Counted from the first letter of the stretch, positions 18,371 to 51,232 are shown. The stretch: 64,000 bases of DNA from an uncultured bacterium (GCA_964387845.1 CAYLXA010000004.1:32001-96000), one strand, 5' to 3'. The notes: generated by a model not told the origin, from the letters alone. A program made the numbers and translations.

Positions 18371-18469
18371 GTAGATAAACCGCACTTTTTTGCTCTCCAA
18401 CATTGATTTTGTTTGACAGAGTGTCTATCTTTTTCTCACGAAGCAAAATTTCTTTCGGGAGGAAAGAAC

Positions 18470-21400
18470 ATGAAGCCAAAATCAAAAGCAGTCCAAAAAA
18501 TTGTCGCAGGAATTCTGATCTTCTTTTTTGCGTTAACCGGCATTTTTGAAAATGCTGTCGGGGTCGATTTAAAGAAAGCTTTTGCGCTTCCGGGTTCATT
18601 TTTACCGGTCGCGGGTGCCCTGGGCGACCTCCAATCCCAGGCTTCCGTTGCCAAACCTTTCCATACGGATCTCTTCACGGGTTCCGCTCAGTTTGCAATT
18701 CCGGTTTTTACGCCTCCCGGCCGCAAGGGGATTGCACCCGAAGTTGCGATTGGTTATTCCTCATCGGGTGGTAACTCGTGGCTTGGGGTTGGCTGGAATT
18801 TGGGAAATGAATATATTCAGCGCAGCACGAAGCGAGGCGTGCCTACCTATCAAGACAATCAAGACACATTTGATTTGATGGTAAAAGGTGTTCAGTCGGA
18901 ACTCGTTAAAATTTCTTCTACCGAATATCACGCGCGATACGAATCCGGCGAGTTCATGAAAATCGTATTTCAGAATGATTTCTGGAAAGTCACGGACAAA
19001 TCCGGCACTCAGTATTTCTTTGGGCAAACCGAACAGGCAAAAGACCGTAACTCGCTTGGTATTTTCTCATGGCAGCTTGAAAAGGTGAGGGACGTGAGTG
19101 GAAACACAATTACTTACACTTATACAAAGGACCAAGGCGAGCTTTATCCATCGCGGATTGATTACAATGGGAATGAAGATGAAAATTTTGCACCCACGCA
19201 CTCGGTTGAATTTGTGACGGAGGCAAAGCCGGATATCACATTTTCTTATATAACAGGCGTCAAGGTTTCGAATGCGCGGCGGCTTAAGGAAATCTTGGTG
19301 AAGGTGAATGGCGCTCTTGCGCGGAAATATCTTTTAACGTACGAGCAGTCGCCGGTGGTTGGCCGCTCGCGCCTCAAGACTGCTAAGGAATGCGGAACGG
19401 ACGGCACAAGCTGCCTTCCGCCTACGACTTTTACCTATCAGGAGCAAACGTTCGGTTTTAAGCCGGGTGTGATCTGGAATCAGCCGAACCTGACCTTGCG
19501 AACAATTGCAAACGGCCTCAATACGGAAACCAGCTCGACGGATGATATCGACGGCGATGGCTTCCCGGATCGTCTTCTCAAATTAGACAGTCTTTGCACC
19601 CAACAGCTTTGCCAATGGCAGGCGTTTAAAAATACGGGTGCAGGATTCGAATTAGCGCCTTCTTTGCGCGGACCCATTCAAGGTTGGGCAGACCAAAGTT
19701 ATGCAGCGATTCGTGGTGATTCGAACGGTACTTCGTCGTATGTCAATTTAATTGATATCAACCGCGACGGAAAATTAGACCGTGTCGTGCAGGGGACTTC
19801 CAACAATGTGGGCGGTGGAAATGGTTGGGCGCTTCAAATCAATAACGGCATCGGATTTGAGAATCAAATTTATTTCGGGCCAACGATGGAAAATACTCAG
19901 CTTCGGACCGGCCAATGGTACCACCCAGATGGTTTTGATCCCGATACTTATCGGGTGCTTTGGGATGCGACGGACATGAACAGCGATGGTTTTGTTGACC
20001 GGCTTGCTACCGTCAATAACAACACCTGGGGCGTTTATTGGGGCTCCGGCACCGGTTTTTCTTCTGTGGTTTATAACTGGAATAACGTTCAAGGAACTCC
20101 GAATTGGAATTCCGTCCGCGATTATGATTCCGATACCGGCCACGGAAGCTCTGATTTAATGGATATTAACGGTGACGATTTGCCGGACCGGATCATCGGC
20201 GGTGGGGTTTGGAATCCGGGCGGATCCACCGGATTTGCAATTCAATACAATAACGGACGCAGCTTCGAAAATTTACAGTATCTCGGGATACTTCCTTCAG
20301 GAACAACCTCAGGCGTCACGATGGACATCGACGGCGGTTCGCACAGTCATCCGAACACGACACACATCCTGCTGGATGTAAATCAAGACGGCCTTCCGGA
20401 TCGTGTTAGAAAGATTTCAAATACGCAGTGGAATGTTCATTTCAATACCGGAAACGGGTTTGTCACGAGCGGTGTTGCGTGGGGGCCGATTGAAGGTTTT
20501 TCAGATTCCGATAAAACGGTCCGCCGCACGGAGGGCGATTCGGTCACGGTTGATTATTTTGACATCGATGCGGACGGGTTTCCGGATCGAATCGTCTCCC
20601 ATCCATCCGAAGCCAAGTGGATGGTCCAGCTTGCGTACGAAACAGTGCCCGATCTTTTACGTCAAGTGAATAACGGCAGGGGTGGTGTAACGACGGTGAC
20701 TTACAAACCGGCGACGCGCTATTACAACGGCGGCGGCGATGGAATCGCGGATTTGTCTTTTCCATTAATGACGGTCGAAAGCGTGACGCAGGATGACGGT
20801 TTCGGCAATCTCATCACAACACAATATGAATATGCGGACGGCAAATACAACGCCGCAGAACGCGAGTTCCGAGGCTTTAACCGGGCGCGCGTAATTGATG
20901 CAGATGGTAATTACACAGACACCTGGTTTTATCAAAGCAATCCCTTAAAAGGCAGGCCTTATCTCACAGAAACCCGCGATGTGGGTCAGAATTTTTATTC
21001 CCAAACTTGGAACGAATGGCAAACCATCGAACCCGCCGGAATGTCGGGTGTTGAATATGCTCGCGTGATCAGTACGACGAATTGGATTTATGACGGCAAT
21101 GAGACTTTCAAATTCGGCCAGATGAATTACTTATATGATCAGTATGGCAATGTCATCGAAACTTTAAACTGGGGCGAAATTGAACCGGACGGCTGGAATC
21201 AGTTTACGGGTGATGAAATCCGCACCAAAATTCAATATGCCTATAACACCGCGCTTTGGATTATGGACAAGCCGAAACATGTGGAAACTTACGACAAGGA
21301 TTGGAACCGGCTACAGGAGAGCTGGCTTTATTATGATTCAAACCTGAACTTTCACACACCGCCCACGAGAGGGCTGTTAACAAAGAAAGAAGAACTCATT

Positions 21401-24400
21401 GCTTTGGGAGGTGCGAAAGTCAAAACCGAGATGACGTATGACCCATTCGGAAATCTCCTTACCGTGAAAGATGCGAAAGGATTTGTGACGACGAATGAAT
21501 ATGACCCAACCTTTAAACTCTATCTCACAAAAGTCACGAACACCTTGGGCCATGCGCAGGAATTTACGTACGATCCTTTGATTGCGCAAATTACGCACGT
21601 CAAAGACCAAAATAATCAAATTTCACGCACGATTTACGATCCGCTCGGGCGGGCCGTGAAAGTGATTTCGCCGCTCGATTCCGATAGCGCGCCGACTCGA
21701 GCAACTTTTTACGATTTATCGGTTTTTCCAAACCGGATGGTAAGTTATGTGAAAATAGATTCCGATGCGCCCGCGCTTTCAATCGACGGCAATCCGCACG
21801 CCGGCTACCTGACCAGTTATTCATTCTCAGACGGCTTGGGGCGCGAAATCCAAAAGCGCAGCCCGGCTGAAGCTTCGAATCAACAAGTGGTTTCGGGGCT
21901 TGTTACGTATGATTCGCGCGGGCAGGTGAAGCGGCAGTATGTGCCGTATTACGCCGATTTCCGGACGACTTACGCCACACCGCCCACGAATTTTCCGTAT
22001 GCCGAGTTTGATTACGATGCGGTGGGCCGCAGAATTAAAACCACTTATCCCGACGGCGCATTCGCCACAATTCAATTTGATGATTTCACAAAAGTTCTCA
22101 CGGATCCAAACGGCCACGAAAAGCGCTACACGCAGGATGCTTACGGAAATCTAATCAAGGTCGAGGAGTTCAATCAGAGTCAAACTTACACGACGCGTTA
22201 TGAATATGACCGCTTGAATCGATTAATCAAAACCACGGATCACTACGGCCACGTCACCGAAGTCGAATATGACATGCTGGGCCGCAAGACAGCGATGGCC
22301 GATCCCAATATGGGCATTTGGGCTTACACGTATGACGCTAATAACAATTTGCTTACACAAACGGATGCCAAAAGCCAAACGATCACGTTTCAATATGATA
22401 ATTTAAACCGCTTAACTCGCAAAACCTATCCTGACGGTACGCATATTGACTACACGTATGATTTTTGCCCGCTTGAAGCTTGCGGCTGGCAGCCTGAATC
22501 AAACGTTTCTGTTGGTAAATTAGTCAAAGTCTCTGACCAATCAGGCATTCAAACTTTCCGGTACGACCAGCTCGGCAGAGTCATTCAAGACAAGAAATCC
22601 CTGGATAACGGTGAAGATTACACCTTCACCCGAATCTATGATCCGCAGGGAAGAGTGACTTCCTTAGAATATCCGGATCAAGATATTTTAAATCTTACTT
22701 TCAATAATATGGGCGAAGCTGAAACCTTAACCCTTATCCCTTACTCCTTACCTCTTGTGTCCATTATCCAAAACGTCAACTACAACCCAAGCGGCCAAAT
22801 CACGAAGATTGAATTCGGAAACGGTGTCGTGTCAGACTATACGTATAATCTCCAGACGCTTCGGTTAGAACGTCTCTTAACCCAGAACCAAGCGCAGGTT
22901 ACACTCCAAGATTTCACTTACGAGTTCGACAACGCAGGAAACGTCCAGTCCATCACGGATGCCGTCAACACCAACACGCAATCCTTTCTGTATGATGATC
23001 TAGACCGTCTCACGCAAGCCACGGGAAACTACGGCACCCATATCTTTGAATATAACGCCATCGGCAACATGACCCGTAAACACAATGCCTATTTAAATTA
23101 CACAGACCCTGCACATCCCCACGCTGTCACGCGTTATCAAAAAGGCGCTGAAGTGATTCAATATCAATACGATGCCAACGGTAATATGACCAAGCGCGGC
23201 AGTGATACCATTCTCTATGACTTTGACAACCGGCCCATCCGGATGGACCGTACCACAACCACAGGCGGCTGCGATGTCTATCCCGTGCCGATGGATTATT
23301 ATCAGACAACGCAATCACCCGGAACTGGTGATGACGGCAATGCGCTTCAAGCGCCAAGCCCACAGCCTGTAGCCGGCAGCCCGGGGCTTGTAGCCCGTAG
23401 CCAGCAGCCTGAAGCCGAAAGCGTGGCGCAAGGTAATCGGTCGACTCAAATCATGTATCCTTGTCCCAACCCCGGCCAAACCACCACCCACATGTTCGCC
23501 CAGTATGTCTATGACGCCTCGGGCCAGCGTGTGAAGAAAATCACGGACAACAAAATCGAATATTATCTTGGCAAGGATTATGAACTTAACTATACTAGCG
23601 ACCCGGTAGGAATGGGTTCTTTCTCAACCCGAAAAGCCTTCTTCTTGGGTGAGGCGCGCATCGCGGAATTTGAACAAATCCAAAATGCGGAAGGCGTGCC
23701 CCCGCATATTCGTTTCTTCCACGGCGATCACCTAGGTTCCACCAACATCATCACCAACGAACAGGGCAATCAAACCCTGCTCATGGAATATTTGCCGTAT
23801 GGTGAAGTGAAACTCCGCGTCGGAACAGATCCGGTCCAAAATACTTTCACAGGCCAAAAGGAAGACCTAGAATCCGGGCTCATGTACTACAACGCCCGCT
23901 ACTATGACCCGAAGATCGGTAGGTTCATTCAAGCTGATTCCATCGTTCCAAACGCGACGGATCCTCAAGAGTTTAATCGTTACAGCTACGTCAACAACAA
24001 CCCCATCAAATTCACCGACCCAACGGGACATAAGAAGAAGAAATGGTGGAAGAAGTTATTTAAACGTAAATCCACAAAAGGCGGCTTATTTGGAGCTATC
24101 ATTGGTGGAATTGTTGGTTCGATTGTGCCCGGAATTGGCACTGTCGCAGGAGCAAGTATTGGTGGTGCAATTGGTGGCGGAATTGGCGGCGGAATTGATG
24201 CCGCACAAGCTGGAGGTAATTTTGGTCAAATAGTACGAGGTGTTGTGTCAGGTGCCGTTGAAGGGTATCTGATTGGGCAAGTTATTGGTAATGTTACTGT
24301 CGGGGTCGGGCAATGGCTGGCTGCGATGAAGAATCCCGCAGCAGGTTTTGGGCATTATGGGATAAATGCCAACGATGTGCTCGCGAAATATGGAGGCAGA

Positions 24401-24916
24401 GTCCATATTAACGGAATGGGTGTTCCATACGAACAAGCACTTGCCGATGCAAATAGTCTTGATGCTGCTCTGTTTTATAACCCATCGAATGGCTTTATTG
24501 CAGATTTAACAGAATCAGCTCTACAGAAATTTACCGGGACAAGTTCGTTAGGCAGAGGTTTGCGACATGCGCTTGGCCCTTACGTTGCGCGTGGCGGTGA
24601 AGCAACAATCTTTGCACATAGCCAAGGAGCCTTGATTGCATCAAATGCAGTTACAAGTTCTTTGTTGGGCGGATCGTCGCTTCGCGGCGTAGCTATTGAA
24701 TCTTTGGGTGGAGCTGCCAATTCGTTTACGGCAAAGTTATTTGCTAGAGCTGCCGGAGCCACTTTTAATTCAATAAGTACCCCTAATGATATTGTTGCCG
24801 CATTAGCTCAGCCGGAATTAAATCCAATTAAATTTACCAGAGCCATGGTAGGAGGCATTGCAAGCGGCGGAAGAGATCATGATTTTCGTCATTATCTGGA
24901 GATTAAACGAGGATGA
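18470..24916 (+). CDS. RHS/YD-repeat polymorphic toxin with N-terminal signal/TM, FG-GAP-like repeats (DxDGDGxPDR), YD repeats and a DPxGH RHS core. The C-terminal domain has a Lys-rich segment, a glycine zipper and an A-H-S-Q-G hydrolase-like motif.
   Basis: The start was chosen at the ATG at 18470, which follows a GGAGG site. YD repeats include YTYDANNNLLTQTD and RYEYDRLNRL. The core reads RYYDPKIGRFIQADSIVPN ... NNNPIKFTDPTGH. The tail reads KKKKWWKKLFKRK, GAIIGGIVGSIVPGIGTVAGASIGGAIGGGIGGGI and IFAHSQGALIA. Confidence 0.85.
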   Translation: MKPKSKAVQKIVAGILIFFFALTGIFENAVGVDLKKAFALPGSFLPVAGALGDLQSQASVAKPFHTDLFTGSAQFAIPVFTPPGRKGIAPEVAIGYSSSGGNSWLGVGWNLGNEYIQRSTKRGVPTYQDNQDTFDLMVKGVQSELVKISSTEYHARYESGEFMKIVFQNDFWKVTDKSGTQYFFGQTEQAKDRNSLGIFSWQLEKVRDVSGNTITYTYTKDQGELYPSRIDYNGNEDENFAPTHSVEFVTEAKPDITFSYITGVKVSNARRLKEILVKVNGALARKYLLTYEQSPVVGRSRLKTAKECGTDGTSCLPPTTFTYQEQTFGFKPGVIWNQPNLTLRTIANGLNTETSSTDDIDGDGFPDRLLKLDSLCTQQLCQWQAFKNTGAGFELAPSLRGPIQGWADQSYAAIRGDSNGTSSYVNLIDINRDGKLDRVVQGTSNNVGGGNGWALQINNGIGFENQIYFGPTMENTQLRTGQWYHPDGFDPDTYRVLWDATDMNSDGFVDRLATVNNNTWGVYWGSGTGFSSVVYNWNNVQGTPNWNSVRDYDSDTGHGSSDLMDINGDDLPDRIIGGGVWNPGGSTGFAIQYNNGRSFENLQYLGILPSGTTSGVTMDIDGGSHSHPNTTHILLDVNQDGLPDRVRKISNTQWNVHFNTGNGFVTSGVAWGPIEGFSDSDKTVRRTEGDSVTVDYFDIDADGFPDRIVSHPSEAKWMVQLAYETVPDLLRQVNNGRGGVTTVTYKPATRYYNGGGDGIADLSFPLMTVESVTQDDGFGNLITTQYEYADGKYNAAEREFRGFNRARVIDADGNYTDTWFYQSNPLKGRPYLTETRDVGQNFYSQTWNEWQTIEPAGMSGVEYARVISTTNWIYDGNETFKFGQMNYLYDQYGNVIETLNWGEIEPDGWNQFTGDEIRTKIQYAYNTALWIMDKPKHVETYDKDWNRLQESWLYYDSNLNFHTPPTRGLLTKKEELIALGGAKVKTEMTYDPFGNLLTVKDAKGFVTTNEYDPTFKLYLTKVTNTLGHAQEFTYDPLIAQITHVKDQNNQISRTIYDPLGRAVKVISPLDSDSAPTRATFYDLSVFPNRMVSYVKIDSDAPALSIDGNPHAGYLTSYSFSDGLGREIQKRSPAEASNQQVVSGLVTYDSRGQVKRQYVPYYADFRTTYATPPTNFPYAEFDYDAVGRRIKTTYPDGAFATIQFDDFTKVLTDPNGHEKRYTQDAYGNLIKVEEFNQSQTYTTRYEYDRLNRLIKTTDHYGHVTEVEYDMLGRKTAMADPNMGIWAYTYDANNNLLTQTDAKSQTITFQYDNLNRLTRKTYPDGTHIDYTYDFCPLEACGWQPESNVSVGKLVKVSDQSGIQTFRYDQLGRVIQDKKSLDNGEDYTFTRIYDPQGRVTSLEYPDQDILNLTFNNMGEAETLTLIPYSLPLVSIIQNVNYNPSGQITKIEFGNGVVSDYTYNLQTLRLERLLTQNQAQVTLQDFTYEFDNAGNVQSITDAVNTNTQSFLYDDLDRLTQATGNYGTHIFEYNAIGNMTRKHNAYLNYTDPAHPHAVTRYQKGAEVIQYQYDANGNMTKRGSDTILYDFDNRPIRMDRTTTTGGCDVYPVPMDYYQTTQSPGTGDDGNALQAPSPQPVAGSPGLVARSQQPEAESVAQGNRSTQIMYPCPNPGQTTTHMFAQYVYDASGQRVKKITDNKIEYYLGKDYELNYTSDPVGMGSFSTRKAFFLGEARIAEFEQIQNAEGVPPHIRFFHGDHLGSTNIITNEQGNQTLLMEYLPYGEVKLRVGTDPVQNTFTGQKEDLESGLMYYNARYYDPKIGRFIQADSIVPNATDPQEFNRYSYVNNNPIKFTDPTGHKKKKWWKKLFKRKSTKGGLFGAIIGGIVGSIVPGIGTVAGASIGGAIGGGIGGGIDAAQAGGNFGQIVRGVVSGAVEGYLIGQVIGNVTVGVGQWLAAMKNPAAGFGHYGINANDVLAKYGGRVHINGMGVPYEQALADANSLDAALFYNPSNGFIADLTESALQKFTGTSSLGRGLRHALGPYVARGGEATIFAHSQGALIASNAVTSSLLGGSSLRGVAIESLGGAANSFTAKLFARAAGATFNSISTPNDIVAALAQPELNPIKFTRAMVGGIASGGRDHDFRHYLEIKRG
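23356..23425. repeat. GC heptad array (gtagccN / gcagccN, about 9 units), in-frame inside the RHS gene. It encodes an APSPQPVAGSPGLVARSQQPEAES linker.
   Basis: Units: cacagcct gtagccg gcagccc ggggctt gtagccc gtagcca gcagcct gaagccg. Confidence 0.6.
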
Positions 24917-26364: not shown

Positions 26365-26470
26365 AATTTCAAAATTCAAATTTCAAATCTCAAAACACTG
26401 TAAATATTGAGCATGCCTTGAGTTGGGCAGTTCTTGAATTTTGATATTTGAGATTTGAATTTATTCTGTT
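26365..26470. repeat. AT-rich inverted heptad-repeat element, copy 2 of 4.
   Basis: aatttcaaaattcaaatttcaaatctcaaaa ... ttttgatatttgagatttgaattt. Confidence 0.6.
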
Positions 26471-26494: not shown

Positions 26495-26881
26495 ATGAAA
26501 AAGCTTCTGATCGTGGACGACGAAGAGGATATTGTTGATTTCCTGAGGGAATTTTTCGAAAGCCGCCCCGAAAAGTACGAAATCAAAACCGCCCACAACG
26601 GCCCCGATGCGCTCAAGATTTACCAGTCGTTCATGCCCGACTGCATGCTCCTCGACATCAAGATGCAGCAGGCGAAGGGCAAAATGAACGGCCTCGACGT
26701 CCTCCGCAAGGTCCGCCAGACCGACGCCAAAACCAAAATCATCATGGTCACCGCGATGGACAGCCGCGAAATGATCGGCGAAGCCATCCAGGCCGGCGCC
26801 AACGACTACATTGTGAAACCGCTCTACCTTGACTACCTGGAAAAGACCGTCCTCGCCAAGCTCGCCGAACCGGGGAAATGA
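26495..26881 (+). CDS. Response regulator, receiver domain only (CheY-like).
   Basis: LIVDDEEDI, LLDIKM, KPL receiver signature. Confidence 0.8.
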   Translation: MKKLLIVDDEEDIVDFLREFFESRPEKYEIKTAHNGPDALKIYQSFMPDCMLLDIKMQQAKGKMNGLDVLRKVRQTDAKTKIIMVTAMDSREMIGEAIQAGANDYIVKPLYLDYLEKTVLAKLAEPGK

Positions 26882-28305
26882 TCTACGCGATCGGATCTTT
26901 TGCGATTACGGTTTTTAATTTCATTCTTTGGTTCCTAACCTTTTTTGGCCGCAAGTTAAGCGACCTTGCGCGCGCCTATTTTTGGTGGTCATTTTTTATC
27001 GCAATTTGGGCGTTCGGTTACGGCATTACGCTCGCCGGGTTTTTTGATTACGGCACAACGCTTGCCTGGAACCGGTTTTGCCAGTCGATGGCAATGCTAG
27101 TAGCGCCTTTCTTCTTTAAATATTGCGCGGTTTTGATTGACGAATATCCGAAATACGAAAAAATATTTCTTTCATATCTGACGCTCTCGGTCCTGATCGC
27201 CGCGGGCATTTTCGCAACGCCGCATTTTATCAGCGACCTTTGGTCATTCGGCATTTACCGGTATCAACCACTGGCCGGCCCATTTTATTTCCTGTATGTC
27301 AGCTTGTTTGCGCTTTGTGCGTTGCATGGATTCGCGCTTGTTTTGTCGCGATATAAGCAATTCGATGGCATTAAGAGAAGTCAAGCGCGGCTTTTTTTGA
27401 TTGCGACAGGAACATCTTATTTTGGTGGTTTTACACTTTTCATTCAGGCGCTCAGGATCCCACTTGATTCTTTTGGTATTTTTCTCGGCTTGACTTACGT
27501 GCTAATTACCGGCTACGCGATTCACAAATATCAATTTCTGGATTTTCCATCACTATTACGCACCAAAGAAGTCGTCGCGATCCACAATGAAAAACTCATG
27601 CTGCTCGGATTATTCTCTTCCAGTATTAATCATGAGCTCAAAAATCCTTTGTTTATGCTCCGCGAATTTGCGAAACGCCTTTTGACGATTGAAGCCGTCG
27701 CAAAGGGCGGCGAAGCGTCCGATATTGTCCGCAAGATGTCTGCTCAGATCAACCGGATTTCGGAGCTTGTGGAGCGTTCGCGCGATTTCATCCGGCCTGG
27801 CGGCGAAAATGCAATTGAGGATATTGACCTCGGGCAAGTGGTGGAAAACGCTTTGTTTTTTGCATCGACGGAGATGAAGTATCAAAATATCGAAGTCAAA
27901 ATTGATATTCCCGAAGGTCTGCCGGTCTTGCGCGGCGACAAAAGCCAGTTTGAAGTCATTTTTTTGAATTTGATTGTGAACGCCTATCACTCTATGCCGA
28001 ATGGCGGGAAATTGACGATTGAAGCACGAAGCGTCCCTCACCCTTTATCCCTCTCCCTCAGGGAGAGGGAGGAGCGAAGCGAGGGTGAGGGTGGTATTGA
28101 AGTAATCATTTCCGATTCCGGAACCGGTATCTCAAAAGAAAACCTCAAAAATATCTTCAAACCCTTCTACTCCACCAAAGGCAAACAAGGGACGGGCCTT
28201 GGCCTCCATATTGTGAAAACCTTGGTCGAACAGAATGGCGGCAAAATCTCAGTCGCAAGCGAAGTCGGGAAGGGCACACAATTCAAATTGGAATTTAAGG
28301 CATGA
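26878..28305 (+). CDS. Membrane sensor histidine kinase, paralog 1 of 4. Carries an in-frame REP-like insert in the HATPase loop.
   Basis: Multi-TM N-terminus. H box HELKNPL. N box NAYHSM, G1 SDSGTGI, G2 GTGLGL. Insert at 28035-28091. Confidence 0.8.
   Translation: MIYAIGSFAITVFNFILWFLTFFGRKLSDLARAYFWWSFFIAIWAFGYGITLAGFFDYGTTLAWNRFCQSMAMLVAPFFFKYCAVLIDEYPKYEKIFLSYLTLSVLIAAGIFATPHFISDLWSFGIYRYQPLAGPFYFLYVSLFALCALHGFALVLSRYKQFDGIKRSQARLFLIATGTSYFGGFTLFIQALRIPLDSFGIFLGLTYVLITGYAIHKYQFLDFPSLLRTKEVVAIHNEKLMLLGLFSSSINHELKNPLFMLREFAKRLLTIEAVAKGGEASDIVRKMSAQINRISELVERSRDFIRPGGENAIEDIDLGQVVENALFFASTEMKYQNIEVKIDIPEGLPVLRGDKSQFEVIFLNLIVNAYHSMPNGGKLTIEARSVPHPLSLSLREREERSEGEGGIEVIISDSGTGISKENLKNIFKPFYSTKGKQGTGLGLHIVKTLVEQNGGKISVASEVGKGTQFKLEFKA
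28035..28091. repeat. REP-like GC palindrome, in-frame in HK1. Encodes PHPLSLSLREREERSEGEGG.
   Basis: ccctcaccc tttat ccctctccc tca gggagaggg ... gggtgaggg. Confidence 0.8.
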
Positions 28306-29735
28306 ACATTGAAGAATTTTGCAGATTAACAGGACTGGTCAATTTTGTTTGTTGTTTGTTATTTGCAATATTCATTTTTTCAAAGAATCCGCGAGAAAGA
28401 ACCCATCAGATTTTTGCTTTGTTTTCATTTTTTGTTGCGCTGTGGTCATTCGGCTATTTTTGTTTTCATTCTTATAATGCCGACTACGAATCCGCAGATT
28501 TTTGGATCCGGTTCTTAACACTCGGTTGCTGTCCCATTCCGGCTGTTTTTCTGCATTTCGTGGTAACGCTTTTACAATTAAATGATCGCCCTCTCTATAA
28601 ATGGCTTGTTGGCTTTGCCTATATTTTCTTTTTCTCGTTGATTTTATTCTCACCAACTTCGTTAATGGTCGCAAGTCTTGAACCTAAACATTGGTACCGT
28701 TTATGGCCTAATCCGGGTTTTTTGTGGCATTTCTATACTGCAGGATTTTTTATCACCGTATTATTTTCTCATTACCTTTTATTTAGAGCCGCGTTTCACT
28801 CTACAGGAGTTCGTCGAAAGCAACTAATGCTGGTTGCCGTGGGAACTTTGATTACGTTTTCCGGCGGTTCTACCAATTTTTTTCTTTGGTATGATATCAC
28901 AATCGCTCCCGTGTTAAATGGGTTTGGAATTCTTTACATTATTATTGTTTTCTATGCGGTTCTGAATTATCAATTTTTACAGGTGGAAGATGTCCTGGCG
29001 ATTCATAGAGATAAACTGATGCTGCTAGGGCTTATGTCATCGAGTTTGACGCATGAAATCAAAAATCCTTTGTTTCTAGTCAAAGGCTATACGGATAAAA
29101 TTACGGCGTTGGCGCAAAAGAAAAACGACACCGAAATCGCAGATGCCCTCCGCCATCTTTCAAGCCAAGTTTCCCGAATGAGCACGCTTGTTACGCGGCT
29201 TAGCGATTTCGGAAAGCCAAATCCTAACCCGGGCAAACAGGAAGATGTGGATGTGGCCCAAGCACTCGAGGATGCCTTATTTTTTGCAGAGCAAGAACTC
29301 AAGCATCACAACATTGAAGTTGTAAAGAAAATCGAGCTCAATCTGCCAAAATTGAAGGGTGATAAGAGTCAATTTGAGGAAATATTCTTGAATTTAATTA
29401 TGAATGCATTCCATTCTATGAAGAATGGCGGGAAATTAACCATTGAAGCAAAAATCCCTCACCCACGCTCCGCGTTACCCTCTCCCTCAGGGAGAGGGGA
29501 GGGTGAGGGCGGTATTGAAGTAATTATTTCCGATTCCGGAACCGGAATATCGAAAGAAAACCTCAAAAATATCTTCAAACCCTTTTACTCAACGAAAGGC
29601 AAACAAGGGACGGGCCTCGGCCTTCACATCGTCAAAACTCTCGTCGAACAGAATAGTGGCAAGATCTCAGTCGAAAGCGAAGTGGGTAAGGGAACAAGAT
29701 TTAAACTTTTATTCAACGCAGAACTCAGAGTATGA
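28302..29735 (+). CDS. Membrane sensor histidine kinase, paralog 2 of 4. Carries an in-frame REP-like insert.
   Basis: HEIKNPLF H box. Same HATPase motifs as HK1. Insert at 29456-29509. Confidence 0.8.
   Translation: MNIEEFCRLTGLVNFVCCLLFAIFIFSKNPRERTHQIFALFSFFVALWSFGYFCFHSYNADYESADFWIRFLTLGCCPIPAVFLHFVVTLLQLNDRPLYKWLVGFAYIFFFSLILFSPTSLMVASLEPKHWYRLWPNPGFLWHFYTAGFFITVLFSHYLLFRAAFHSTGVRRKQLMLVAVGTLITFSGGSTNFFLWYDITIAPVLNGFGILYIIIVFYAVLNYQFLQVEDVLAIHRDKLMLLGLMSSSLTHEIKNPLFLVKGYTDKITALAQKKNDTEIADALRHLSSQVSRMSTLVTRLSDFGKPNPNPGKQEDVDVAQALEDALFFAEQELKHHNIEVVKKIELNLPKLKGDKSQFEEIFLNLIMNAFHSMKNGGKLTIEAKIPHPRSALPSPSGRGEGEGGIEVIISDSGTGISKENLKNIFKPFYSTKGKQGTGLGLHIVKTLVEQNSGKISVESEVGKGTRFKLLFNAELRV
29456..29509. 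repeat. REP-like GC palindrome, in-frame in HK2. Encodes PHPRSALPSPSGRGEGEGG.
   Basis: ccctcaccc ... ccctctccc tca gggagagggg a gggtgaggg. Confidence 0.8.
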
Positions 29736-31081
29736 ACGCGTACAATTTATCCGTCTTATTTTTTGCTTACAGCGCCTTTCTCCTAAGCTTGCTGCTACTT
29801 GTTAAGAATAATGATCCCCTCAATCGCAGTTTTTTTATATTTAATATTTTTGTTTGCATGTGGGGATTTAACATATCCTGGATGCTGAATAGTTCAATTT
29901 CTTATGAAGAAGCCATGCTTGCGTCGCGTCTAGCAAACTTGGGAGCACTCTTTATTCCCCCGAGCTGGCTGGGATTTGTGTGTGCTTTTCTCGAAATAAA
30001 AGAAGAAAAATCGAGAATCATTAAGTTGATTTATATATTGAGCGCCTGCGTCGCTTTATTTAGCTTTAGCCCGCTTTATGTTTCTTCAGTAAAATCGTTT
30101 TCAGACTTCAAGTATTACACTGTAGCTGGCCCGGTCTATCATTTATTTACAATCGAATTTACACTTGTTGTCATGTATGGCTTTTATCATTTATTTAAAG
30201 CGCTCAAGGGGAAAACCGGTGTCAAAAGAACCCAACATATCGTATTCACATGCGCCATCGGTTTCGGTTTTGTTGGTGGCTCGCTGACATTTTTGCCGGT
30301 TTACAACATCCCGCTTCCTCAGTATGGATTATTTTTACTGCCGCTCTATCCGTTCTTAATGACATTTGCAATTATGAGGCATGGATTCTTGGATCAAGAT
30401 GATATTCTTGCCATCCATAAGGACAAGCTCGCGCTTTTGGGGCTCATTTCATCCAGCCTCAATCATGAAATCAAGAATCCTTTATTCTTGCTCAAAGGTT
30501 ACGTTCAGAAGATGGAATTAAGCACGAAAGATCCTTCTTTACCCAAAATGTCGGAACAAATCAGCCGGATGAGCAACTTGGTGGAGCGCCTGGGTGAATT
30601 CGCGAAGCCGGGCTCCGGGGCCAAAGAAGAGGTATATCTCGAAAAAGCTATTGATAACGCTCTGTTTTTTGCGATGCAAGAACTCAAATATCAAAATATC
30701 GAGGTGAAAACCGATATTCAGAAGCCGCTTCCCAATCCCATCGGCAATCGCGGCCAGTTTGAGGAAATTTTCCTCAATCTAATTGTGAATGCGTTTCATG
30801 CGATGTCGCCGGGCGGAGGCAAATTAACGATATCCGCTATATCCGAAATCCGAAATTCGAAATCCGAAATAATAATCACGATTTCCGACTCAGGATGTGG
30901 AATCCCCAAAGACCGCCTCAAGCGCGTATTTGAACCCTTTTATACCACCAAAACCGGCCGCGGCACCGGCCTCGGCCTTCACATCGTGAAAACCTTGGTC
31001 GAACAGAATGACGGCAAAATCTCGGTCGAAAGCGAAGTGGGCAAAGGCACGAAATTCAAATTGGAATTCAGCACAAAATGA
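29732..31081 (+). CDS. Membrane sensor histidine kinase, paralog 3 of 4.
   Basis: HEIKNPLF. NAFHAM. SDSGCGI. GTGLGL. A tccgaaa heptad x4 lies at 30833-30871, in the same loop position as the HK1/HK2 insert. Confidence 0.8.
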   Translation: MNAYNLSVLFFAYSAFLLSLLLLVKNNDPLNRSFFIFNIFVCMWGFNISWMLNSSISYEEAMLASRLANLGALFIPPSWLGFVCAFLEIKEEKSRIIKLIYILSACVALFSFSPLYVSSVKSFSDFKYYTVAGPVYHLFTIEFTLVVMYGFYHLFKALKGKTGVKRTQHIVFTCAIGFGFVGGSLTFLPVYNIPLPQYGLFLLPLYPFLMTFAIMRHGFLDQDDILAIHKDKLALLGLISSSLNHEIKNPLFLLKGYVQKMELSTKDPSLPKMSEQISRMSNLVERLGEFAKPGSGAKEEVYLEKAIDNALFFAMQELKYQNIEVKTDIQKPLPNPIGNRGQFEEIFLNLIVNAFHAMSPGGGKLTISAISEIRNSKSEIIITISDSGCGIPKDRLKRVFEPFYTTKTGRGTGLGLHIVKTLVEQNDGKISVESEVGKGTKFKLEFSTK

Positions 31082-32430
31082 ATCCATTTAGTCTCGCATT
31101 ATTGTTTTTCGCTTTTTGTTCGATTCTTATCGGTTTATTTGTTTTTTTAAAGCGTGATGATTACACCGGAAAGCTTTTTTTCTTCTGGAATATTTTAATC
31201 GCGGGCTGGGGAATTCCTGCTTCAATTGCATTCACTAACGAGGTAAGTTATCAAACCGCCTTATATGGAACTCGAATCGCTCATTTTTCATCTGTTCTAA
31301 TACCCGCAGCATGGCTTCATTTCGTTTTAGTATTTGTAGGAAAATTTGAACAAAAGAAAACATTGGTTCTATTTTTCTATTTCTATAGTTTGATTATAGA
31401 TTGCTTTGTTTTTACACCTTTTTTTATTCCTCATTCAGAACCCATGGTGGGATTTCGGTATTATCCAATGGGAGGAGTAGCCTATCACTTTTTTTCAATC
31501 GAATTCTTTACGGCAGTGCTTTTGGCATTTTATGAATTAGTAAGAGCCTATCAAGCTAGCTTTGGGGAAAAGAAAAAGCGCCTGGGTGTTTTAACATTAG
31601 CCACTTTTCTTGCTTACCTCGGTGGTTCTTTAACGTTTCTTCCTTTGTATCATATCCCATTTCCACAATATGGTTTATTCTTAATGCCGATTTATCCATT
31701 TATGATGGCATATGCAATGATTCGCCATGGCTTGCTTGACTCCGAAGAAATTCTTGCTATTCAAAAAGATAAACTGGCTCTACTTGGTCTTATGACTTCA
31801 AGTTTAAATCACGAAATCAAAAATCCACTGTTTTTGTTGCGCGGCTATGTTCAAAAGGCCAGAGGCGGAGAAGTTCAGTCGATTGATAAAATGACGGAAC
31901 AGATCGACCGGATCGGCAAGCTGACCGAGCGTTTAAGCGAATTCTCACGGTCAGGATCTGCTGTGGCACAAAAAGAAGAAGTCGATATCGCTCAAGCAAT
32001 CGAAAATGCACTGTTTTTTGCCAATCACGAACTGAAATATCATAATATTGAGATCAAAAAGGAAATCGATCCCAACCTACCCAAAGTTCTCGGCGACAAA
32101 GGCCAATTCGAGCAAATTTTCCTTAACCTAATTATGAACGCTTTCCACGCGATGTCGGGCGGAGGGCGATTGACGATCTCTGCTAAATCCGCACTCCGCA
32201 CTCCACACTCCGCAATTGAAATAAGCATCTCCGACTCTGGATGTGGTATTCCAAAAGAACAGCTTAAAAATATCTTTAAACCGTTCTATACTACGAAGGG
32301 CAAATCCGGCACCGGCTTGGGCCTGCATATTGTTAAAACCTTGGTCGAGCAGAATGGAGGAAAAATATCGGTTCAGAGCGAGGAGGGAAAAGGTACTGCT
32401 TTTTTGTTAAGTTTCTTAATTAACAGCTGA
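31078..32430 (+). CDS. Membrane sensor histidine kinase, paralog 4 of 4.
   Basis: HEIKNPLF. NAFHAM. SDSGCGI. An actccgc heptad x4 lies at 32188-32214, in the same loop position. Confidence 0.8.
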   Translation: MNPFSLALLFFAFCSILIGLFVFLKRDDYTGKLFFFWNILIAGWGIPASIAFTNEVSYQTALYGTRIAHFSSVLIPAAWLHFVLVFVGKFEQKKTLVLFFYFYSLIIDCFVFTPFFIPHSEPMVGFRYYPMGGVAYHFFSIEFFTAVLLAFYELVRAYQASFGEKKKRLGVLTLATFLAYLGGSLTFLPLYHIPFPQYGLFLMPIYPFMMAYAMIRHGLLDSEEILAIQKDKLALLGLMTSSLNHEIKNPLFLLRGYVQKARGGEVQSIDKMTEQIDRIGKLTERLSEFSRSGSAVAQKEEVDIAQAIENALFFANHELKYHNIEIKKEIDPNLPKVLGDKGQFEQIFLNLIMNAFHAMSGGGRLTISAKSALRTPHSAIEISISDSGCGIPKEQLKNIFKPFYTTKGKSGTGLGLHIVKTLVEQNGGKISVQSEEGKGTAFLLSFLINS

Positions 32431-32505: not shown

Positions 32506-32868
32506 ATGCAACGCATCCTCTTAATTGACGATGATCTATTGATTTTAAAATCGACCGGTCGATTGCTGGAGAAAGCGGGGTATCAAGTAATCTCGGTCTC
32601 CAATTCTTCAAAAGCTTTTGACGCAATTCAGAACAGTGATTTTGATCTCATATTATCTGATATCCGAATGCCGGGCAAGAATGGTGTTCAAACCGTCAGC
32701 GAAATTCAGGATAATTTAATCAAAGCAGGCAAGAAAGATTTGCCTATTATTTTCATAACCGGTTTCGCAGAATTTGGAGACGAACTCCAAGCTAACTTTC
32801 AGGGAGAAGTCTTGTATAAGCCGGTTGATAACGACAAATTAATAGCGACTATCCGGGATTATTTATGA
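32506..32868 (+). CDS. Response regulator, receiver domain only.
   Basis: LLIDDD, LILSDIRMPG, KP receiver motifs. Confidence 0.8.
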   Translation: MQRILLIDDDLLILKSTGRLLEKAGYQVISVSNSSKAFDAIQNSDFDLILSDIRMPGKNGVQTVSEIQDNLIKAGKKDLPIIFITGFAEFGDELQANFQGEVLYKPVDNDKLIATIRDYL

Positions 32869-36755: not shown

Positions 36756-39197
36756 ATGCTTCAACAGTACTTCATAGCACTTTTCATATCCGGACTTTCT
36801 CATACCCTTCTTGCAACTTTTGTCTATTTGAATAGTAAGTCAAAGTCATCAAATATCACTTATGTGGGCTATTCATATTCGATTGCTTTTTGGAGTTGCG
36901 GTCAAGCATTTGCCATAATCCAGCATCAATATCAAGCTGGACTATATTTATGGCGGATAAGCCATATCGGAGTAATATTCATACCCGTTTTCTTTGTGCA
37001 TTTCGTAATGAGCCTGTTCCCCTCCGAACGACAGACTAAGCAGCAGTTCGTTTTATTTCTCTCTTATTGTTTTGGTATATTCTTCTTTATATTAAATTTT
37101 CTTGGGTACCTAATATCCGACGTAAGCCCTAAAGGTCACTTTAGGTTTGCGATGGAACCGGGCCCTTTATACTTGATGTTTGTTTTAGTCTGGGTAATAT
37201 GGGTTTCGTATGGTTTGTTGAAATTATTTAAGCTATATCAGATTTCGAATGAAAGCAGAAGAAAGCAGCTGCAATATTTTTCTGTTTCCATGTTTTTTGC
37301 GTACGTAGGTGGTGCACCAAATTTCTTGCCAGCGTTTCGTATAGAAGTACCAATTCTTATGCCATATGGTACTTACGCTATAGCGATTTATGCTTTTTTT
37401 ACAGCATTTGCAATTGTAGAGCATCGTCTTTTTGATATCGAAGTCATTATCAAGAAAACGCTTGTGTTTGCGGGACTGACGTCATTCGTGTTCGGCGTTT
37501 TTGCGGGCATTACGTTCCTGGCGCGGGAGATTTTGAGCACGTATGTGCAGGTCCCGAGCGCGGTGGCGAACATCCTGAGTATTGCAATTGTCGTGCTTTG
37601 CTATGATCCGCTCCGGAATTTCCTTGTGAATGTGACGGACCGCTTTCTGTCTCAGAAAAAATTCAATTACGCGAAAGTCCTCAGAGAAACGAGCAAAGAC
37701 ATCGCGCTTGTGACGAGCCTGACGGAACTGACGCGGCGGATTATCGCGGTGTTGATCCGAAAAGCCCGCACCAAGAACACGGCGATTTTTATCCGCAACG
37801 TGAAGGACGATCATTTGGAACTCAAGGGCTGTTACGGCTACGGCCGCAAAAACCGGCCCGACATAGTTCTGCAATCTGAAAGCACGATCGTGAAATTTCT
37901 CGATGAACACCAGCAGCCCTTTACGCGCCAGCAGCTCGAAGAAGAGAAGACGAGAGTCACGGACCCTGAAAGACGCGACCGCATCAGCATTATTCTGCAG
38001 CTTATGAATATTCTCAAAGCGCAAGTCGTGGTGCCGAGTTTCCTCGGAGGTGCGGCGGAAATCACCGGCAATCAAAAATCAGGCACAAGTTTGCGGAGTC
38101 TCCTGATTCTGGGCGAGAAAAAGTCTGATGAGGATTATTACGAAGAAGATCTCGACATGCTTGCCACGCTTGCGCAAGAACACGCCATTGCGTTTGAAAA
38201 CGCACGGCTCTTCGATGAAGCGCTCGAACGTTCCAAAGAACTTCAGCAAATGAACACCGAACTTGTGAAAGTGCAAGCCGACCTTTTAAATTCGCTGAAT
38301 GAAACCGAGCTCGCGAGCCGGAAACTCCACGAAGCGCAGGCCGCACTGATCGTTGCCGAAAAGAACGCCACCATGGTCGGCATGGCAAAGGCCATCGGCC
38401 ACGAGGTCAACAATCCGCTTTCGACCGTCGCGGGCCGCGCGATGTTCATCCAAAAAACCCGGCTTCCGAAAGTAAAAGACATTATCGAGCGCTACAAAGG
38501 AAAAATCACGGCGGAAGAATATGAGCTGGCGAGGACGAGCTTTGAAAAAATAGACGACGACAGCACGCGCATCGCGACCTGCGCCAAGCGGATCGAAATC
38601 GTCGTCAAAACCCTCACCGGCATCATGAAAGAATCCACCGGCGAATTACAGCCGCTCAGTTTTCTCGTCTTGTGGAAGGAAGCCGCCGAAGCCGTGCGCT
38701 TTAATACCTACGAGGAGAACCTTTCAAGCTGCCAGATCATCGAAGGCATTGCGGCGAATTTGATTGTGCAGGGAAACCTTGAGCAGCTGATTCAAGTCTT
38801 CCTCAATCTGATCAAAAATTCCTACGAGGCGATGATGAATCAGGCGGAGAAATGCATCACGGTCAAAGCCGATGTGGACCCGGATGACCCGCGCTATGCG
38901 CTCATTGTCGTCTCCGATAACGGCCCGGGGATTCCGCCGGATATTCTGCCCAAAATTTGGGGCCAAGGGTTCAGCACTAAAAAGAAAACCAGTTCCGATA
39001 TCGGCGCGGTCGGGCAAGGGCAGGGGCTTTATATCGTCAAACATATGGTCGAGTCGGTCCATAAGGGCACGATCATTGCCGAAAGCATGCCGGGCCACGG
39101 GACTTCCTTCATTATCCGCCTTCCGATTGCGGAGGAGCATGTGGTGATGCGGACGAATGACCAATCAAATAAGACAGAAGTAGCGGATAGCGGGTAG
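36756..39197 (+). CDS. Large membrane sensor histidine kinase with a 7TM-type N-terminus, a GAF-like/coiled-coil middle and HisKA + HATPase_c.
   Basis: H box GHEVNNPLS. N/G boxes NLIKNSYEAM, SDNGPGIP, GQGLYI. Confidence 0.8.
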   Translation: MLQQYFIALFISGLSHTLLATFVYLNSKSKSSNITYVGYSYSIAFWSCGQAFAIIQHQYQAGLYLWRISHIGVIFIPVFFVHFVMSLFPSERQTKQQFVLFLSYCFGIFFFILNFLGYLISDVSPKGHFRFAMEPGPLYLMFVLVWVIWVSYGLLKLFKLYQISNESRRKQLQYFSVSMFFAYVGGAPNFLPAFRIEVPILMPYGTYAIAIYAFFTAFAIVEHRLFDIEVIIKKTLVFAGLTSFVFGVFAGITFLAREILSTYVQVPSAVANILSIAIVVLCYDPLRNFLVNVTDRFLSQKKFNYAKVLRETSKDIALVTSLTELTRRIIAVLIRKARTKNTAIFIRNVKDDHLELKGCYGYGRKNRPDIVLQSESTIVKFLDEHQQPFTRQQLEEEKTRVTDPERRDRISIILQLMNILKAQVVVPSFLGGAAEITGNQKSGTSLRSLLILGEKKSDEDYYEEDLDMLATLAQEHAIAFENARLFDEALERSKELQQMNTELVKVQADLLNSLNETELASRKLHEAQAALIVAEKNATMVGMAKAIGHEVNNPLSTVAGRAMFIQKTRLPKVKDIIERYKGKITAEEYELARTSFEKIDDDSTRIATCAKRIEIVVKTLTGIMKESTGELQPLSFLVLWKEAAEAVRFNTYEENLSSCQIIEGIAANLIVQGNLEQLIQVFLNLIKNSYEAMMNQAEKCITVKADVDPDDPRYALIVVSDNGPGIPPDILPKIWGQGFSTKKKTSSDIGAVGQGQGLYIVKHMVESVHKGTIIAESMPGHGTSFIIRLPIAEEHVVMRTNDQSNKTEVADSG

Positions 39198-39219
39198 CGT
39201 TTAGCGTATAGAAATAAAA

Positions 39220-39576
39220 ATGAGTACAAAAACTCGAAGTTTCAGAGATTTGATTGTATGGCAGAAATCGTATCAGTTGGTAATAGAAATCTATCAAATA
39301 ACAAAAGGCTTCCCAAAAGAGGAGTTGTACGGCTTAGTACAACAAATTCGCCGTTCAGCGGTTTCAATTCCCTCAAACATTGCGGAAGGTTATGGACGGC
39401 AGTTTCAAAAGGAATACAAGCAATTTTTATCAATTTCTTACGGCTCTCTTTGCGAATTGGAAACACAATATTTGATTGCAGTGGATTTGAAATATATTCA
39501 GAGAGTTCCATCATTGGAAGATTTAATGAAAGAAGTAGGAGCCATTCTTTATCGGATGATCAATCCTATCCGCTAA
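39220..39576 (+). CDS. Four-helix-bundle protein (23S rRNA intervening-sequence protein family, TIGR02436).
   Basis: DLIVWQKSYQL ... FPKEELYGLVQQIRRSAVSIPSNIAEGYGR signature. Confidence 0.8.
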   Translation: MSTKTRSFRDLIVWQKSYQLVIEIYQITKGFPKEELYGLVQQIRRSAVSIPSNIAEGYGRQFQKEYKQFLSISYGSLCELETQYLIAVDLKYIQRVPSLEDLMKEVGAILYRMINPIR

Positions 39577-39598
39577 ACGCTATGCGCTGTACGCTATT

Positions 39599-39970: not shown

Positions 39971-40107
39971 TGCGCTGCAAGCTTCAAGCCGCAGGCCTCA
40001 TGCTGCAGCCACAAGCCACAAGCTTCAGGCTACATGCTACAGGCGATAAGTTTAAAGCTTGAGGCTTGCAGCTTGTAGCCTGAAGCGTGCAGCATGAAGC
40101 TTGAAGC
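39971..40107. repeat. 137 bp inverted array of GC heptad repeats. The left arm is about 8 caagcc-type heptads and the right arm is the reverse complement (aagcttg / aggcttg-type). It is intergenic.
   Basis: Left: gcaagct tcaagcc gcaggcc tcatgct gcagcca caagcca caagctt. Right: aaagctt gaggctt gcagctt gtagcct gaagcgt gcagcat gaagctt. Confidence 0.7.
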
Positions 40108-40181
40108 TAAATAGTCATTGCCCATCTGTAAAATCTTCATTAAAATCAAGCCATTTAACCATTGAGAAAGCGAGTTATGAC

Positions 40182-40343
40182 ATGAGCATGCCGGGACCTT
40201 TCGAGTTAGTCATTATCTTTCTTGTCATTCTGCTTCTTTTCGGAGGCAAAAAGCTGCCCGAAATCGGCAAAGCCATCGGTGAAGGCATCCGCGAATTTAA
40301 GCGGGCGATGGGCGACGGGGATAAGAAGGACGAGAAGAAATAA
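40182..40343 (+). CDS. tatA: Sec-independent translocase component TatA/E.
   Basis: MSMPGPFELVIIFLVILLLFGGKKLPEIGKAIGEGIREFKRAM. The start was moved to the internal ATG, which follows a GAGAAAG ribosome-binding site. Confidence 0.8.
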   Translation: MSMPGPFELVIIFLVILLLFGGKKLPEIGKAIGEGIREFKRAMGDGDKKDEKK

Positions 40344-40446
40344 ATTCAAATTTCAAAATTTAAATTTCAAAACAAATTCTAAATCCAAAATATTTCAAAT
40401 TTGAAATTTTAGCATTGTTTTGAATTTTGATATTTGAATTTGATAA
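40344..40446. repeat. AT-rich inverted heptad-repeat element, copy 3 of 4, between tatA and tRNA-Arg.
   Basis: aattcaaatttcaaaatttaaatttcaaaa ... ttttgaattttgatatttgaatttga. Confidence 0.6.
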
Positions 40447-40452
40447 AGAAAT

Positions 40453-40526
40453 CGTGCCTGGAGGGAATCGAACCCCCGACCCTGGGATTAGAAATCCCAT
40501 GCTCTATCCAACTGAGCTACAGGCAC
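40453..40526 (-). tRNA. tRNA-Arg (anticodon TCT)
   Basis: Reverse complement GTGCCTG-TA-GCTC-AGTTGGATA-GAGC-A-TGGGA-TTTCTAA-TCCCA-GGGTC-GGGGG-TTCGATT-CCCTC-CAGGCAC-G. A cloverleaf fold was done by hand. CCA is not encoded. Confidence 0.8.
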
Positions 40527-40592
40527 ATGGAATGGCAGACTTCTTAAAAATATAACTGATAAAAATCATAAGTAAAGCAAAGTTTTAAACCA

Positions 40593-41465: not shown

Positions 41466-41479
41466 TCAAGTTATAAGTG

Positions 41480-41532
41480 GTAAGTGATAAGTGTTAAGCC
41501 GATCAACTACTTACCACTTACCACTTACCACT
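41480..41532. terminator. Inverted heptad array (taagtgN x3 / ccactta x3) between the convergent CDF and exbD genes. Probable bidirectional terminator.
   Basis: taagtgg taagtga taagtgt taagcc gatcaa ctactta ccactta ccactta ccactta cg. Confidence 0.5.
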
Positions 41533-51138: not shown

Positions 51139-51232
51139 TATCAAATTTCAAATATCAAATATCAAAATTCTGAATTTGAGATTGAGTATTGGAATTTGTT
51201 TTATATTTTGATATTTGGATTTTGATATTAAA
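51139..51232. repeat. AT-rich inverted heptad-repeat element, copy 4 of 4.
   Basis: atatcaaatttcaaatatcaaatatcaaaattc ... ttttatattttgatatttggattttgatatt. Confidence 0.6.

Follow-up and report, generated by a model that had tools for sequence, protein, structure and literature searches.

In a 64,000-nucleotide stretch of one strand of a 209-kb contig in a metagenome-assembled genome from an uncultured Omnitrophota bacterium (GCA_964387845.1, CAYLXA010000004.1:32001-96000; hereafter the window, with positions counted from its first letter), four tandem genes for sensor histidine kinases, HK1 to HK4, carry repetitive DNA in frame at one and the same loop of the ATP-binding domain. We find that this loop is a real and well-defined feature, an insertion hotspot that extends across the kinase family, and that the mechanism behind it is ordinary. 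The account that we favor, and that we consider probable, is that selfish or slippage-born repeats are tolerated at a permissive loop and are then exchanged between paralogs.

Four tandem kinases carry repeats at one homologous loop

The four kinase genes are intact open reading frames (ORFs) on the + strand that lie head-to-tail with 4-nt overlaps, and one single-domain response regulator is present on each side of the set (26495-26881 and 32506-32868). Each gene encodes, in this order, an N-terminal HisKA_7TM membrane domain, a HisKA domain and a HATPase_c domain (Pfam). The genes and their inserts are as follows.

HK1, 26878-28305, + strand, 475 aa (ORF list, Pfam; mean predicted local distance difference test score (pLDDT) in AlphaFold2 82.7)
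HK2, 28302-29735, + strand, 477 aa (ORF list, alignment, Pfam)
HK3, 29732-31081, + strand, 449 aa (ORF list, alignment, Pfam; identical in the independent assembly L001)
HK4, 31078-32430, + strand, 450 aa (ORF list, alignment, Pfam)
G-rich composite palindrome in HK1, 28035-28091, + strand (DNA fold -21.2 kcal/mol, z -5.2)
Palindrome of the same family in HK2, 29456-29509, + strand (DNA fold -23.1 kcal/mol, z -5.7)
Heptad array in HK3, 30839-30870, + strand, (A/T)ATCCG-AAATCCG-AAATTCG-AAATCCG-AA.., encoding the peptide ISEIRNSKSE
Heptad array in HK4, 32185-32214, + strand, AAATCCGC-ACTCCGC-ACTCCAC-ACTCCGC-A, encoding the peptide KSALRTPHSA

The four proteins are 42-44% identical overall and their catalytic motifs are intact. 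In the protein alignment, each of the four has additional residues after the strand LTI(E/S)A, which comes next to the N box, and before the strand I(E/I)(V/I)xISDSGxGI (G1 box), and the inserts lie at one position, as expected from an initial annotation of this DNA that had placed repeats at one homologous site in the four tandem kinases. That annotation had also counted four different repeats; repeats are indeed present in all four genes, but HK1 and HK2 share one palindrome family and HK3 and HK4 one unit type, xTCCGxA. Its heptad coordinates agree to within a few bases with Tandem Repeats Finder, which reports ATCCGAA x4.3 at 30841-30870 in HK3 (91% matches) and TCCGCAC x3.9 at 32188-32214 in HK4 (90-91% matches in the two arrays).

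The palindrome has outer arms CCCTCACCC/GGGTGAGGG and, in the HK1 copy, an inner hairpin CCCTCTCCC-TCA-GGGAGAGGG, and the HK1 copy is translated as ..PHPLSLSLREREERSEGEG... A 21-nt core, CCCTCTCCCTCAGGGAGAGGG, is identical in HK1 and HK2, with zero matches expected in shuffles of the window, and the HK2 palindrome is flipped relative to that of HK1 (43 nt, 84% complementary). Because the same core is read in two different frames, giving SLSLRERE in HK1 and PSPSGRGE (..PSPSGRGEGEG..) in HK2, the peptide itself is not what is kept. Two further readings of the palindrome surroundings were considered and rejected: the left spacer in HK2 is the flipped counterpart of the HK1 right spacer rather than a remnant of an ACTCCGC array, and the pair ATTGAAGCA/ATTGAAGTA around both palindromes consists of native I-E strand codons rather than a target-site duplication. 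This 9-nt direct repeat is also present in kinases without the G-rich palindrome.

The HK3 and HK4 arrays are unstructured (fold z +0.5 and +1.1, respectively) and align in register, codon for codon, as xTCCGxA. At the variable positions of this unit, HK3 has A throughout, and HK4 has C in almost all units. Because this difference is concerted across units, homogenisation or renewed expansion of the arrays must have taken place one or more times since the paralogs diverged, and slippage appears to have acted on them over evolutionary time, under frame constraint. We also considered whether the preceding I-S-A codons had seeded the arrays in register, but the spacing, 9 nt and not 7, speaks against this.

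The loop is an insertion hotspot across the kinase family

In the AlphaFold2 model of HK1, the insert (residues 387-405) lies between strands 377-386 and 406-413, and pLDDT falls to ~59 and below 50. The model places the insert as an excursion at the tip of a beta-hairpin in the HATPase_c domain, a site predicted to be exposed and permissive. The solved kinases ZraS (9jfj) and KinB (3d36) have a gap of 17-18 residues relative to HK1 exactly at the palindrome.

As loop length we took the residues that separate the N box and the G1 strand. The loop has at least 28 residues in 25 of 67 members of the Omnitrophota HisKA_7TM family and at least 20 in 35 of 67, and inserts of 12-60 residues, belonging to at least six unrelated sequence types, are found in 25 of the 67. 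In a 53-sequence alignment, the loop is the only position with recurrent insertions of at least 10 residues (15 members). The insert sequences are extremely diverse across the family and many members have no insert. As a control for loop length only, we used the non-Omnitrophota kinases, mostly from Acidobacteriota, among the matches listed in a contig scan with the four-kinase alignment; two Omnitrophota loci are also among the matches listed in that scan. The initial annotation had raised the possibility that the loop is simply of low complexity in all homologs. This is not the case, as 64 of 80 outgroup kinases among the matches listed have a loop of exactly 16 residues; the four long-loop outgroup cases among the matches listed belong to one conserved structural subfamily. 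A 30-residue hairpin of another kinase subfamily proved to be conserved and structural, and not a repeat. The term repeat hotspot is borne out by the recurrent large inserts, their unrelated families and the different inserts of kinases with matching flanks.

Further insert types were found in this loop, some of them in the two syntenic relatives of the window, L002/L003 (Logan SRR18669184 and SRR18669186) and L004 (JGI 3300028648). In L004, the kinase L4_a has as insert a GTCATTGCGAG..CTCGCAATGAC palindrome (z -6.6), of which three more copies lie within 600 nt elsewhere in L004; the same palindrome family is present in kinases P0013 and L085. The loop of P0006 contains ~9 heptads, that of P0013 the palindrome plus 6 heptads running into the strand codons, and that of L086 an inverted-arm repeat of period 7-8. 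The G-rich palindrome of HK1 and HK2 is also present in the loop of a distant kinase, P0052, and some of the remaining inserts may likewise be translated palindromes. L085 and L086 come from a metagenome contig scan with the post-loop alignment, in which the matches listed were mainly generic kinases and did not include the known relative from 3300028648.

A secondary site is occupied in a few kinases. Besides its loop insert, P0022 contains another one of ~56 residues (L004 8182-8340) immediately behind the N box, upstream of the first, and this site is also filled in P0042/P0057 and in P0045.

Insert turnover and gene conversion between paralogs

Comparing the kinases of the window with those of the relatives, we took identity separately for the seven-transmembrane (7TM) domain, for the part from HisKA up to the N box and for the part after the loop. 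The nearest relative of one and the same kinase gene changes between these three segments. Between paralogs, the 7TM sensor domains are 19-31% identical and the post-loop catalytic ends 64-94%, which indicates concerted evolution of the catalytic end while the sensors diversify.

In four comparisons, kinases with a pre-loop identity of 84-95% nevertheless have different inserts. The G-rich palindrome of HK1 stands against a GTCATTGCGAG palindrome in P0034, and that of HK2 against ACTCCGC heptads in P0021 and P0038; the ATCCGAA heptads of HK3 stand against a third insert type in P0003, and the ACTCCGC heptads of HK4 against the same third type in P0011. At the nucleotide level, the identity of HK4 and P0011 is 70-95% for most of the gene's length and 37-53% over ~60-100 nt at the loop. 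Because the drop in identity is confined to the loop, replacement of a short tract is indicated.

The comparison of HK1 with HK2 reveals a longer tract.

HK1 3' conversion tract, 27990-28302, + strand, near-identical to HK2 29414-29720 and including the palindrome

HK1 and HK2 are 62% identical in nucleotides in the 180 nt upstream of the loop segment and 86% identical in the 200 nt downstream, with peaks of 91-96%; in the proteins, identity rises from 51% before the loop to 93% behind it. The tract of high identity starts ~40 nt upstream of the palindrome and reaches the 3' end of the genes, with the palindrome flipped within it. The identity profiles show apparent gene conversion between paralogs, over short as well as long tracts.

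The repeats belong to the genome and are not specific to the kinases

Both types of repeat belong to the genome and are not specific to the kinases. The window contains 14 period-7 arrays in 64 kb compared to 0-3 at every other period from 4 to 15, with none in composition-matched shuffles, and 28 of the 54 Tandem Repeats Finder rows in the window have a period of 7, 14 or 21. At least six different heptad units are present in the 64 kb and no single unit is favoured. Most arrays are inverted pairs that fold into long intergenic hairpins. The G-rich palindrome was found in five copies in the window by pattern search (fold z -5 to -6), three of which lie inside genes. A gene for a tetratricopeptide repeat (TPR)/membrane protein at 15686-17800 contains two in-frame repeat inserts, one of each type.

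Intergenic heptad hairpins, 14253-14345, 26365-26465, 39975-40110, 40342-40445, 41463-41540 and 51137-51232 (inverted pairs, folding)
G-rich palindrome copy (inner hairpin and GGGTGAGGG), 15270-15309, + strand, directly upstream of a DUF559 gene at 15312-15686 (Pfam)
G-rich palindrome copy (CCCTCACCC and inner hairpin), 15646-15680, + strand, at the 3' end of the DUF559 gene
G-rich palindrome with two inner hairpins, 16203-16294, + strand, in frame in the TPR gene (fold -31.3 kcal/mol, z -6.2)
Hairpin with heptad arms (CAAGCYN)n/(NAGCCTG)n, 16402-16475, + strand, in frame in the TPR gene (Tandem Repeats Finder, fold z -2.4)

The palindrome insert in the TPR gene corresponds to a 29-residue gap in the L004 ortholog (BLASTP), and the site of the heptad hairpin has a different length in that ortholog. 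Because these inserts are absent from or variable in the L004 ortholog, they support the generality of the insertion process.

Several of the repeats accompany small genes. A DUF559 (PD-(D/E)XK-like) gene lies between halves of the G-rich palindrome in two genomes, at 15270-15686 in the window and at 360-760 in L004, and its neighbours differ, being YjbQ and TPR genes in the window and AhpC and YjbQ genes in L004. Because the palindrome flanks are the same and the neighbours different in two related genomes, this arrangement suggests that the DUF559 gene and its palindrome flanks may form a mobile unit. In the literature, we found nothing relevant linking DUF559 to palindromes. At 16196-16885 in L004, a GIY-YIG gene lies within a GTCATTGCGAG..CTCGCAATGAC palindrome, with ORF-less copies of the palindrome on both sides, and the entire cluster is enclosed by inverted heptad arrays; judged by its layout, the cluster looks like an autonomous element with non-autonomous derivatives. 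In the window, a gene at 39181-39597 for a 118-aa 23S_rRNA_IVP/bAvd-like four-helix-bundle protein has (TAGCGNN)n upstream and the reverse complement downstream.

The AT-rich hairpins at 14253-14345, 26365-26465, 40342-40445 and 51137-51232 share one design, (AAWTTCA)n ... (TGAAWTT)n. Those at 14253-14345, 40342-40445 and 51137-51232 start at or just after a stop codon, and a tRNA-Arg(TCT) gene (40452-40527, - strand) adjoins one AT-rich heptad hairpin. The four AT-rich hairpins could be terminators or a dispersed element family. The giant ORFs of the window are 52-13290 (4,412 aa) and 18413-24916 (2,167 aa); the latter sits between the TPR gene and the kinase operon, has no counterpart there in L004, and contains in-frame period-7 arrays at 22715-22756 and 23364-23417 that encode the peptides ..ETLTLIPYSLPL.. 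and ..PQPVAGSPGLVARSQQPEAE...

Probable tolerance of repeats at a permissive loop and the alternatives

In the account that we favor, a genome rich in hairpin-forming palindromes and heptanucleotide arrays, free of stop codons and some of them flanking or enclosing small nuclease-like or 23S_rRNA_IVP genes, would supply the inserts. The hairpin tip would tolerate almost any stop-free extra peptide, and copies that arise or land elsewhere in the kinase genes would be removed by selection, leaving the tip as essentially the sole permissive site. Inserts at the tip would persist, and gene conversion within the tandem set would then copy or overwrite them; because they ride in this conversion, the history of the loop cassette would differ from that of the rest of the gene. 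We infer that the inserts are near-neutral passengers. A conversion tract, with a later flip, would have given HK1 and HK2 their common palindrome; the arrays of HK3 and HK4 would derive from one ancestral array, re-homogenised by occasional slippage in which only frame-preserving unit numbers were retained.

Several observations weigh against parts of this account. The loop type of P0003, P0011 and P0012 has no significant fold (z -0.75) and may not be a repeat. For the HK3 and HK4 unit types, there is no other array in the 64-kb window, with two-unit near-matches at most; because of this, insertion of a mobile element is not demonstrated for these two arrays, and local slippage is equally possible. 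The heptad cassettes are also more conserved in nucleotides than the surrounding codons of the catalytic domain. Between HK4 and an L004 kinase, 44 of 45 nt of the cassette and 29 of 30 nt of the array are identical, with flanks that are 66-79% identical and third codon positions that are 32-50% identical. Because a neutral passenger should not out-conserve its flanks, the conservation of the heptads fits poorly with pure neutrality. Finally, the peptide L(R/H)TP(H/Q)SA is kept in all four genes with an HK4-type array, from three genomes, and some function of the HK4-type loop is possible. Possible causes of the cassette conservation are selection at the level of the nucleic acid; multiplexed codon constraint combined with homogenisation, given that the positions of the unit take codon positions 1, 2 and 3 in successive units; and very short conversion tracts.

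These observations lead to the alternative that the loop is functional, that is, that the peptides, at least those of the HK3 and HK4 type, or the motifs encoding them are selected for a role, for instance as a docking surface, as a recombination signal for domain exchange or as a binding site on RNA or DNA with 7-nt periodicity. The heptad cassette together with the next 15 nt is 83-97% conserved across genomes, synonymous positions included, while the flanks are saturated; the boundaries of the identity blocks lie close to the loop; and the peptide, written as LRTPxSA, is retained in 4/4 genes with the HK4-type array. Nevertheless, we regard a functional loop as unlikely. The inserts are extremely diverse across the family and missing altogether from many members, the palindrome core is read in two frames, AlphaFold2 gives the insert no confident structure, and the HK1/HK2 conversion tract begins ~40 nt upstream of the palindrome and not at it. 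Moreover, multiplexed codon constraint in a 7-nt repeat may explain the synonymous conservation.

A different possibility is targeted insertion, in which palindromes that travel with DUF559 or GIY-YIG genes home to conserved kinase DNA in the manner of homing endonuclease elements. The palindrome that encloses the GIY-YIG gene of L004 belongs to the family of one kinase loop insert, the DUF559 gene lies between halves of the G-rich palindrome at different positions in both genomes, and, as many paralogs are highly conserved in the DNA surrounding the loop, a target would be available in multiple copies. We nonetheless find such homing improbable: a target specificity shared by the at least six unrelated insert types at one loop is unlikely, the same elements are present in the unrelated TPR gene and in intergenic DNA, and there is no target-site duplication, the ATTGAAGCA/ATTGAAGTA pair being strand codons.

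The conservation of the cassettes and the small genes near the repeats could also be joined in a broader scheme, in which the loop repeats would be selected cis-acting cassettes of nucleic acid (recombination or conversion signals, or protein-binding sites with 7-nt periodicity) that let the tandem kinases swap catalytic modules, as part of a wider Omnitrophota system moved by small DUF559, GIY-YIG or 23S_rRNA_IVP proteins. We give this scheme a small chance of being correct.

The initial annotation had proposed that slippage of the heptads would shift the frame and could be a form of phase variation or diversification, which would make HK3 and HK4 a contingency locus, switched on and off or diversified within a population. 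Contingency loci, as in Haemophilus, Neisseria and Helicobacter, are surface or restriction-modification genes with long perfect tracts, usually 5'-proximal, whose unit number differs from strain to strain and also inside cultures; slippage needs a long, near-perfect tract for frequent events. As in such loci, the tandem unit in HK3 and HK4 is not a multiple of three (period 7, as noted in the initial annotation) and lies inside the reading frame. The homogenised A and C units imply past slippage or re-expansion, and one fragment, P0122, from a second protein search with the C-terminal 151 residues of HK4 as query, in which the matches were short fragments only, has an HK4-type loop that lacks exactly 7 residues, equal to 3 units at the protein level.

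Against this, and unlike in contingency loci, the arrays are short (3.9-4.3 units), imperfect (90-91% matches) and stable in unit number, and they lie ~80% into the gene, in the catalytic domain of a cytoplasmic signalling enzyme and not in a surface or restriction gene. Our comparison of unit number was made between assemblies, and rare slippage variants may exist within a population. The expected copy-number differences from orthologs did not appear: relatives at 60-95% identity have an unchanged unit number and differ by point substitutions. Between HK3 and its 77%-identical L002 ortholog P0002, array length does not differ and 27 of 30 bases are identical. Of the four genes with the HK4-type array, three agree in its length (HK4 of the window, one gene of L002 and one of L004); the fourth, a second L004 gene, has an additional 6 nt and keeps the frame. 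All length variants seen (+6 nt in DNA, -7 residues in protein) preserve the frame, independent assemblies of the same populations are identical, and no frame-shifted or truncated homolog was found among 120 + 24 database hits. With ~4 imperfect units, a stable number in relatives and a frame that is kept, the proposal of phase variation by slippage is not borne out. A contingency locus is therefore highly doubtful. We suggest that the loop is a tolerant site reshuffled between gene copies rather than an on/off switch, and that a role in phase variation is unlikely.

Lastly, that the pattern arose from repeats mis-joined during assembly of the metagenome-assembled genome has a negligible probability, for although HK1 and HK2 are reported from the NCBI assembly only and an independent Logan contig ends inside the near-identical 3' end of HK2, this contig equals the window at all 7,527 bases, both heptad arrays included, the same architecture is present at related loci from other samples, and HK1 and HK2 are not a collapsed duplicate because their palindromes and scattered bases differ.

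Comparison with known repeat systems

The nearest precedent is given by Rickettsia palindromic elements and by ERIC, Correia and YPAL elements, small dispersed repeats that form hairpins and have open reading frames, and whose in-frame fusions in conserved genes, known from Rickettsia and enterobacteria, have neutral or slight effect (PMC2229807). Like the Rickettsia elements, the G-rich and GTCATTGCGAG-type palindromes are in frame in kinase and TPR genes; they form dispersed hairpin families of the same genome, keep the frame and are absent from homologs or orthologs of the host gene. Unlike the Rickettsia elements, which are 105-170 nt long, those described here are ~55-95 nt long, unrelated in sequence and found in Omnitrophota, several unrelated families occupy one homologous loop and are exchanged by gene conversion, and some members border or surround a small DUF559 or GIY-YIG gene, which differs from the Rickettsia elements as described.

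The initial annotation had named the insert of HK1 and HK2 a repetitive extragenic palindromic (REP) sequence. Classical REPs are extragenic, are mobilised by REP-associated tyrosine transposases (RAYTs) and have a GTAG or CGTC head (PMC3733652). The palindromes here resemble REPs and bacterial interspersed mosaic elements (BIMEs) in being multi-copy imperfect palindromes of a few tens of nucleotides with strong predicted hairpins. The sequence signature of classical REPs is missing, however: the copies begin with CCCTCACCC or CCCTCTCCC, without a GTAG/CGTC head, and, unlike REPs, three of the five copies in the window lie inside genes. Of the features of the MITE class (miniature inverted-repeat transposable elements), inverted termini are present, and the 9-nt flanking direct repeat is made up of the native I-E codons.

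Heptameric repeats are over-represented in bacteria; in Xanthomonas, four is the most frequent number of units, and some arrays form inverted pairs (PMC4692102). Known families include the TAACTGA repeats of Beggiatoaceae (PMC4679880) as well as the GGGAATC repeats of Xanthomonas and the heptamers of Nostoc/Calothrix (PMC4692102). The arrays of the window share with those of Xanthomonas, Nostoc and Beggiatoaceae the excess of period 7, the ~4 units, the inverted pairs forming stem-loops and the mostly intergenic location. They differ in that no unit is favoured and that several arrays are in frame in genes, whereas the known families are under-represented in coding DNA, and in that some inverted arms flank small ORFs.

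Implications

The findings document that very small repeats can be abundant in genomes of a candidate phylum and be translated as part of conserved enzymes. Genome annotation and protein-family modelling are affected, because such inserts give spurious low-complexity regions and can break assemblies. At the same time, the inserts provide a natural map of insertion tolerance in the ATP-binding domain of histidine kinases that can be used for engineering, and HK1 to HK4 are a clean case of mosaic tandem sensor kinases in which divergent sensor domains are combined with homogenised catalytic ends. If selection should be the cause of the nucleotide conservation of the heptad cassettes, this would point to an undescribed role of DNA or RNA with 7-nt periodicity, which is the same question that is posed by the heptamer repeats of cyanobacteria, Xanthomonas and Beggiatoaceae.

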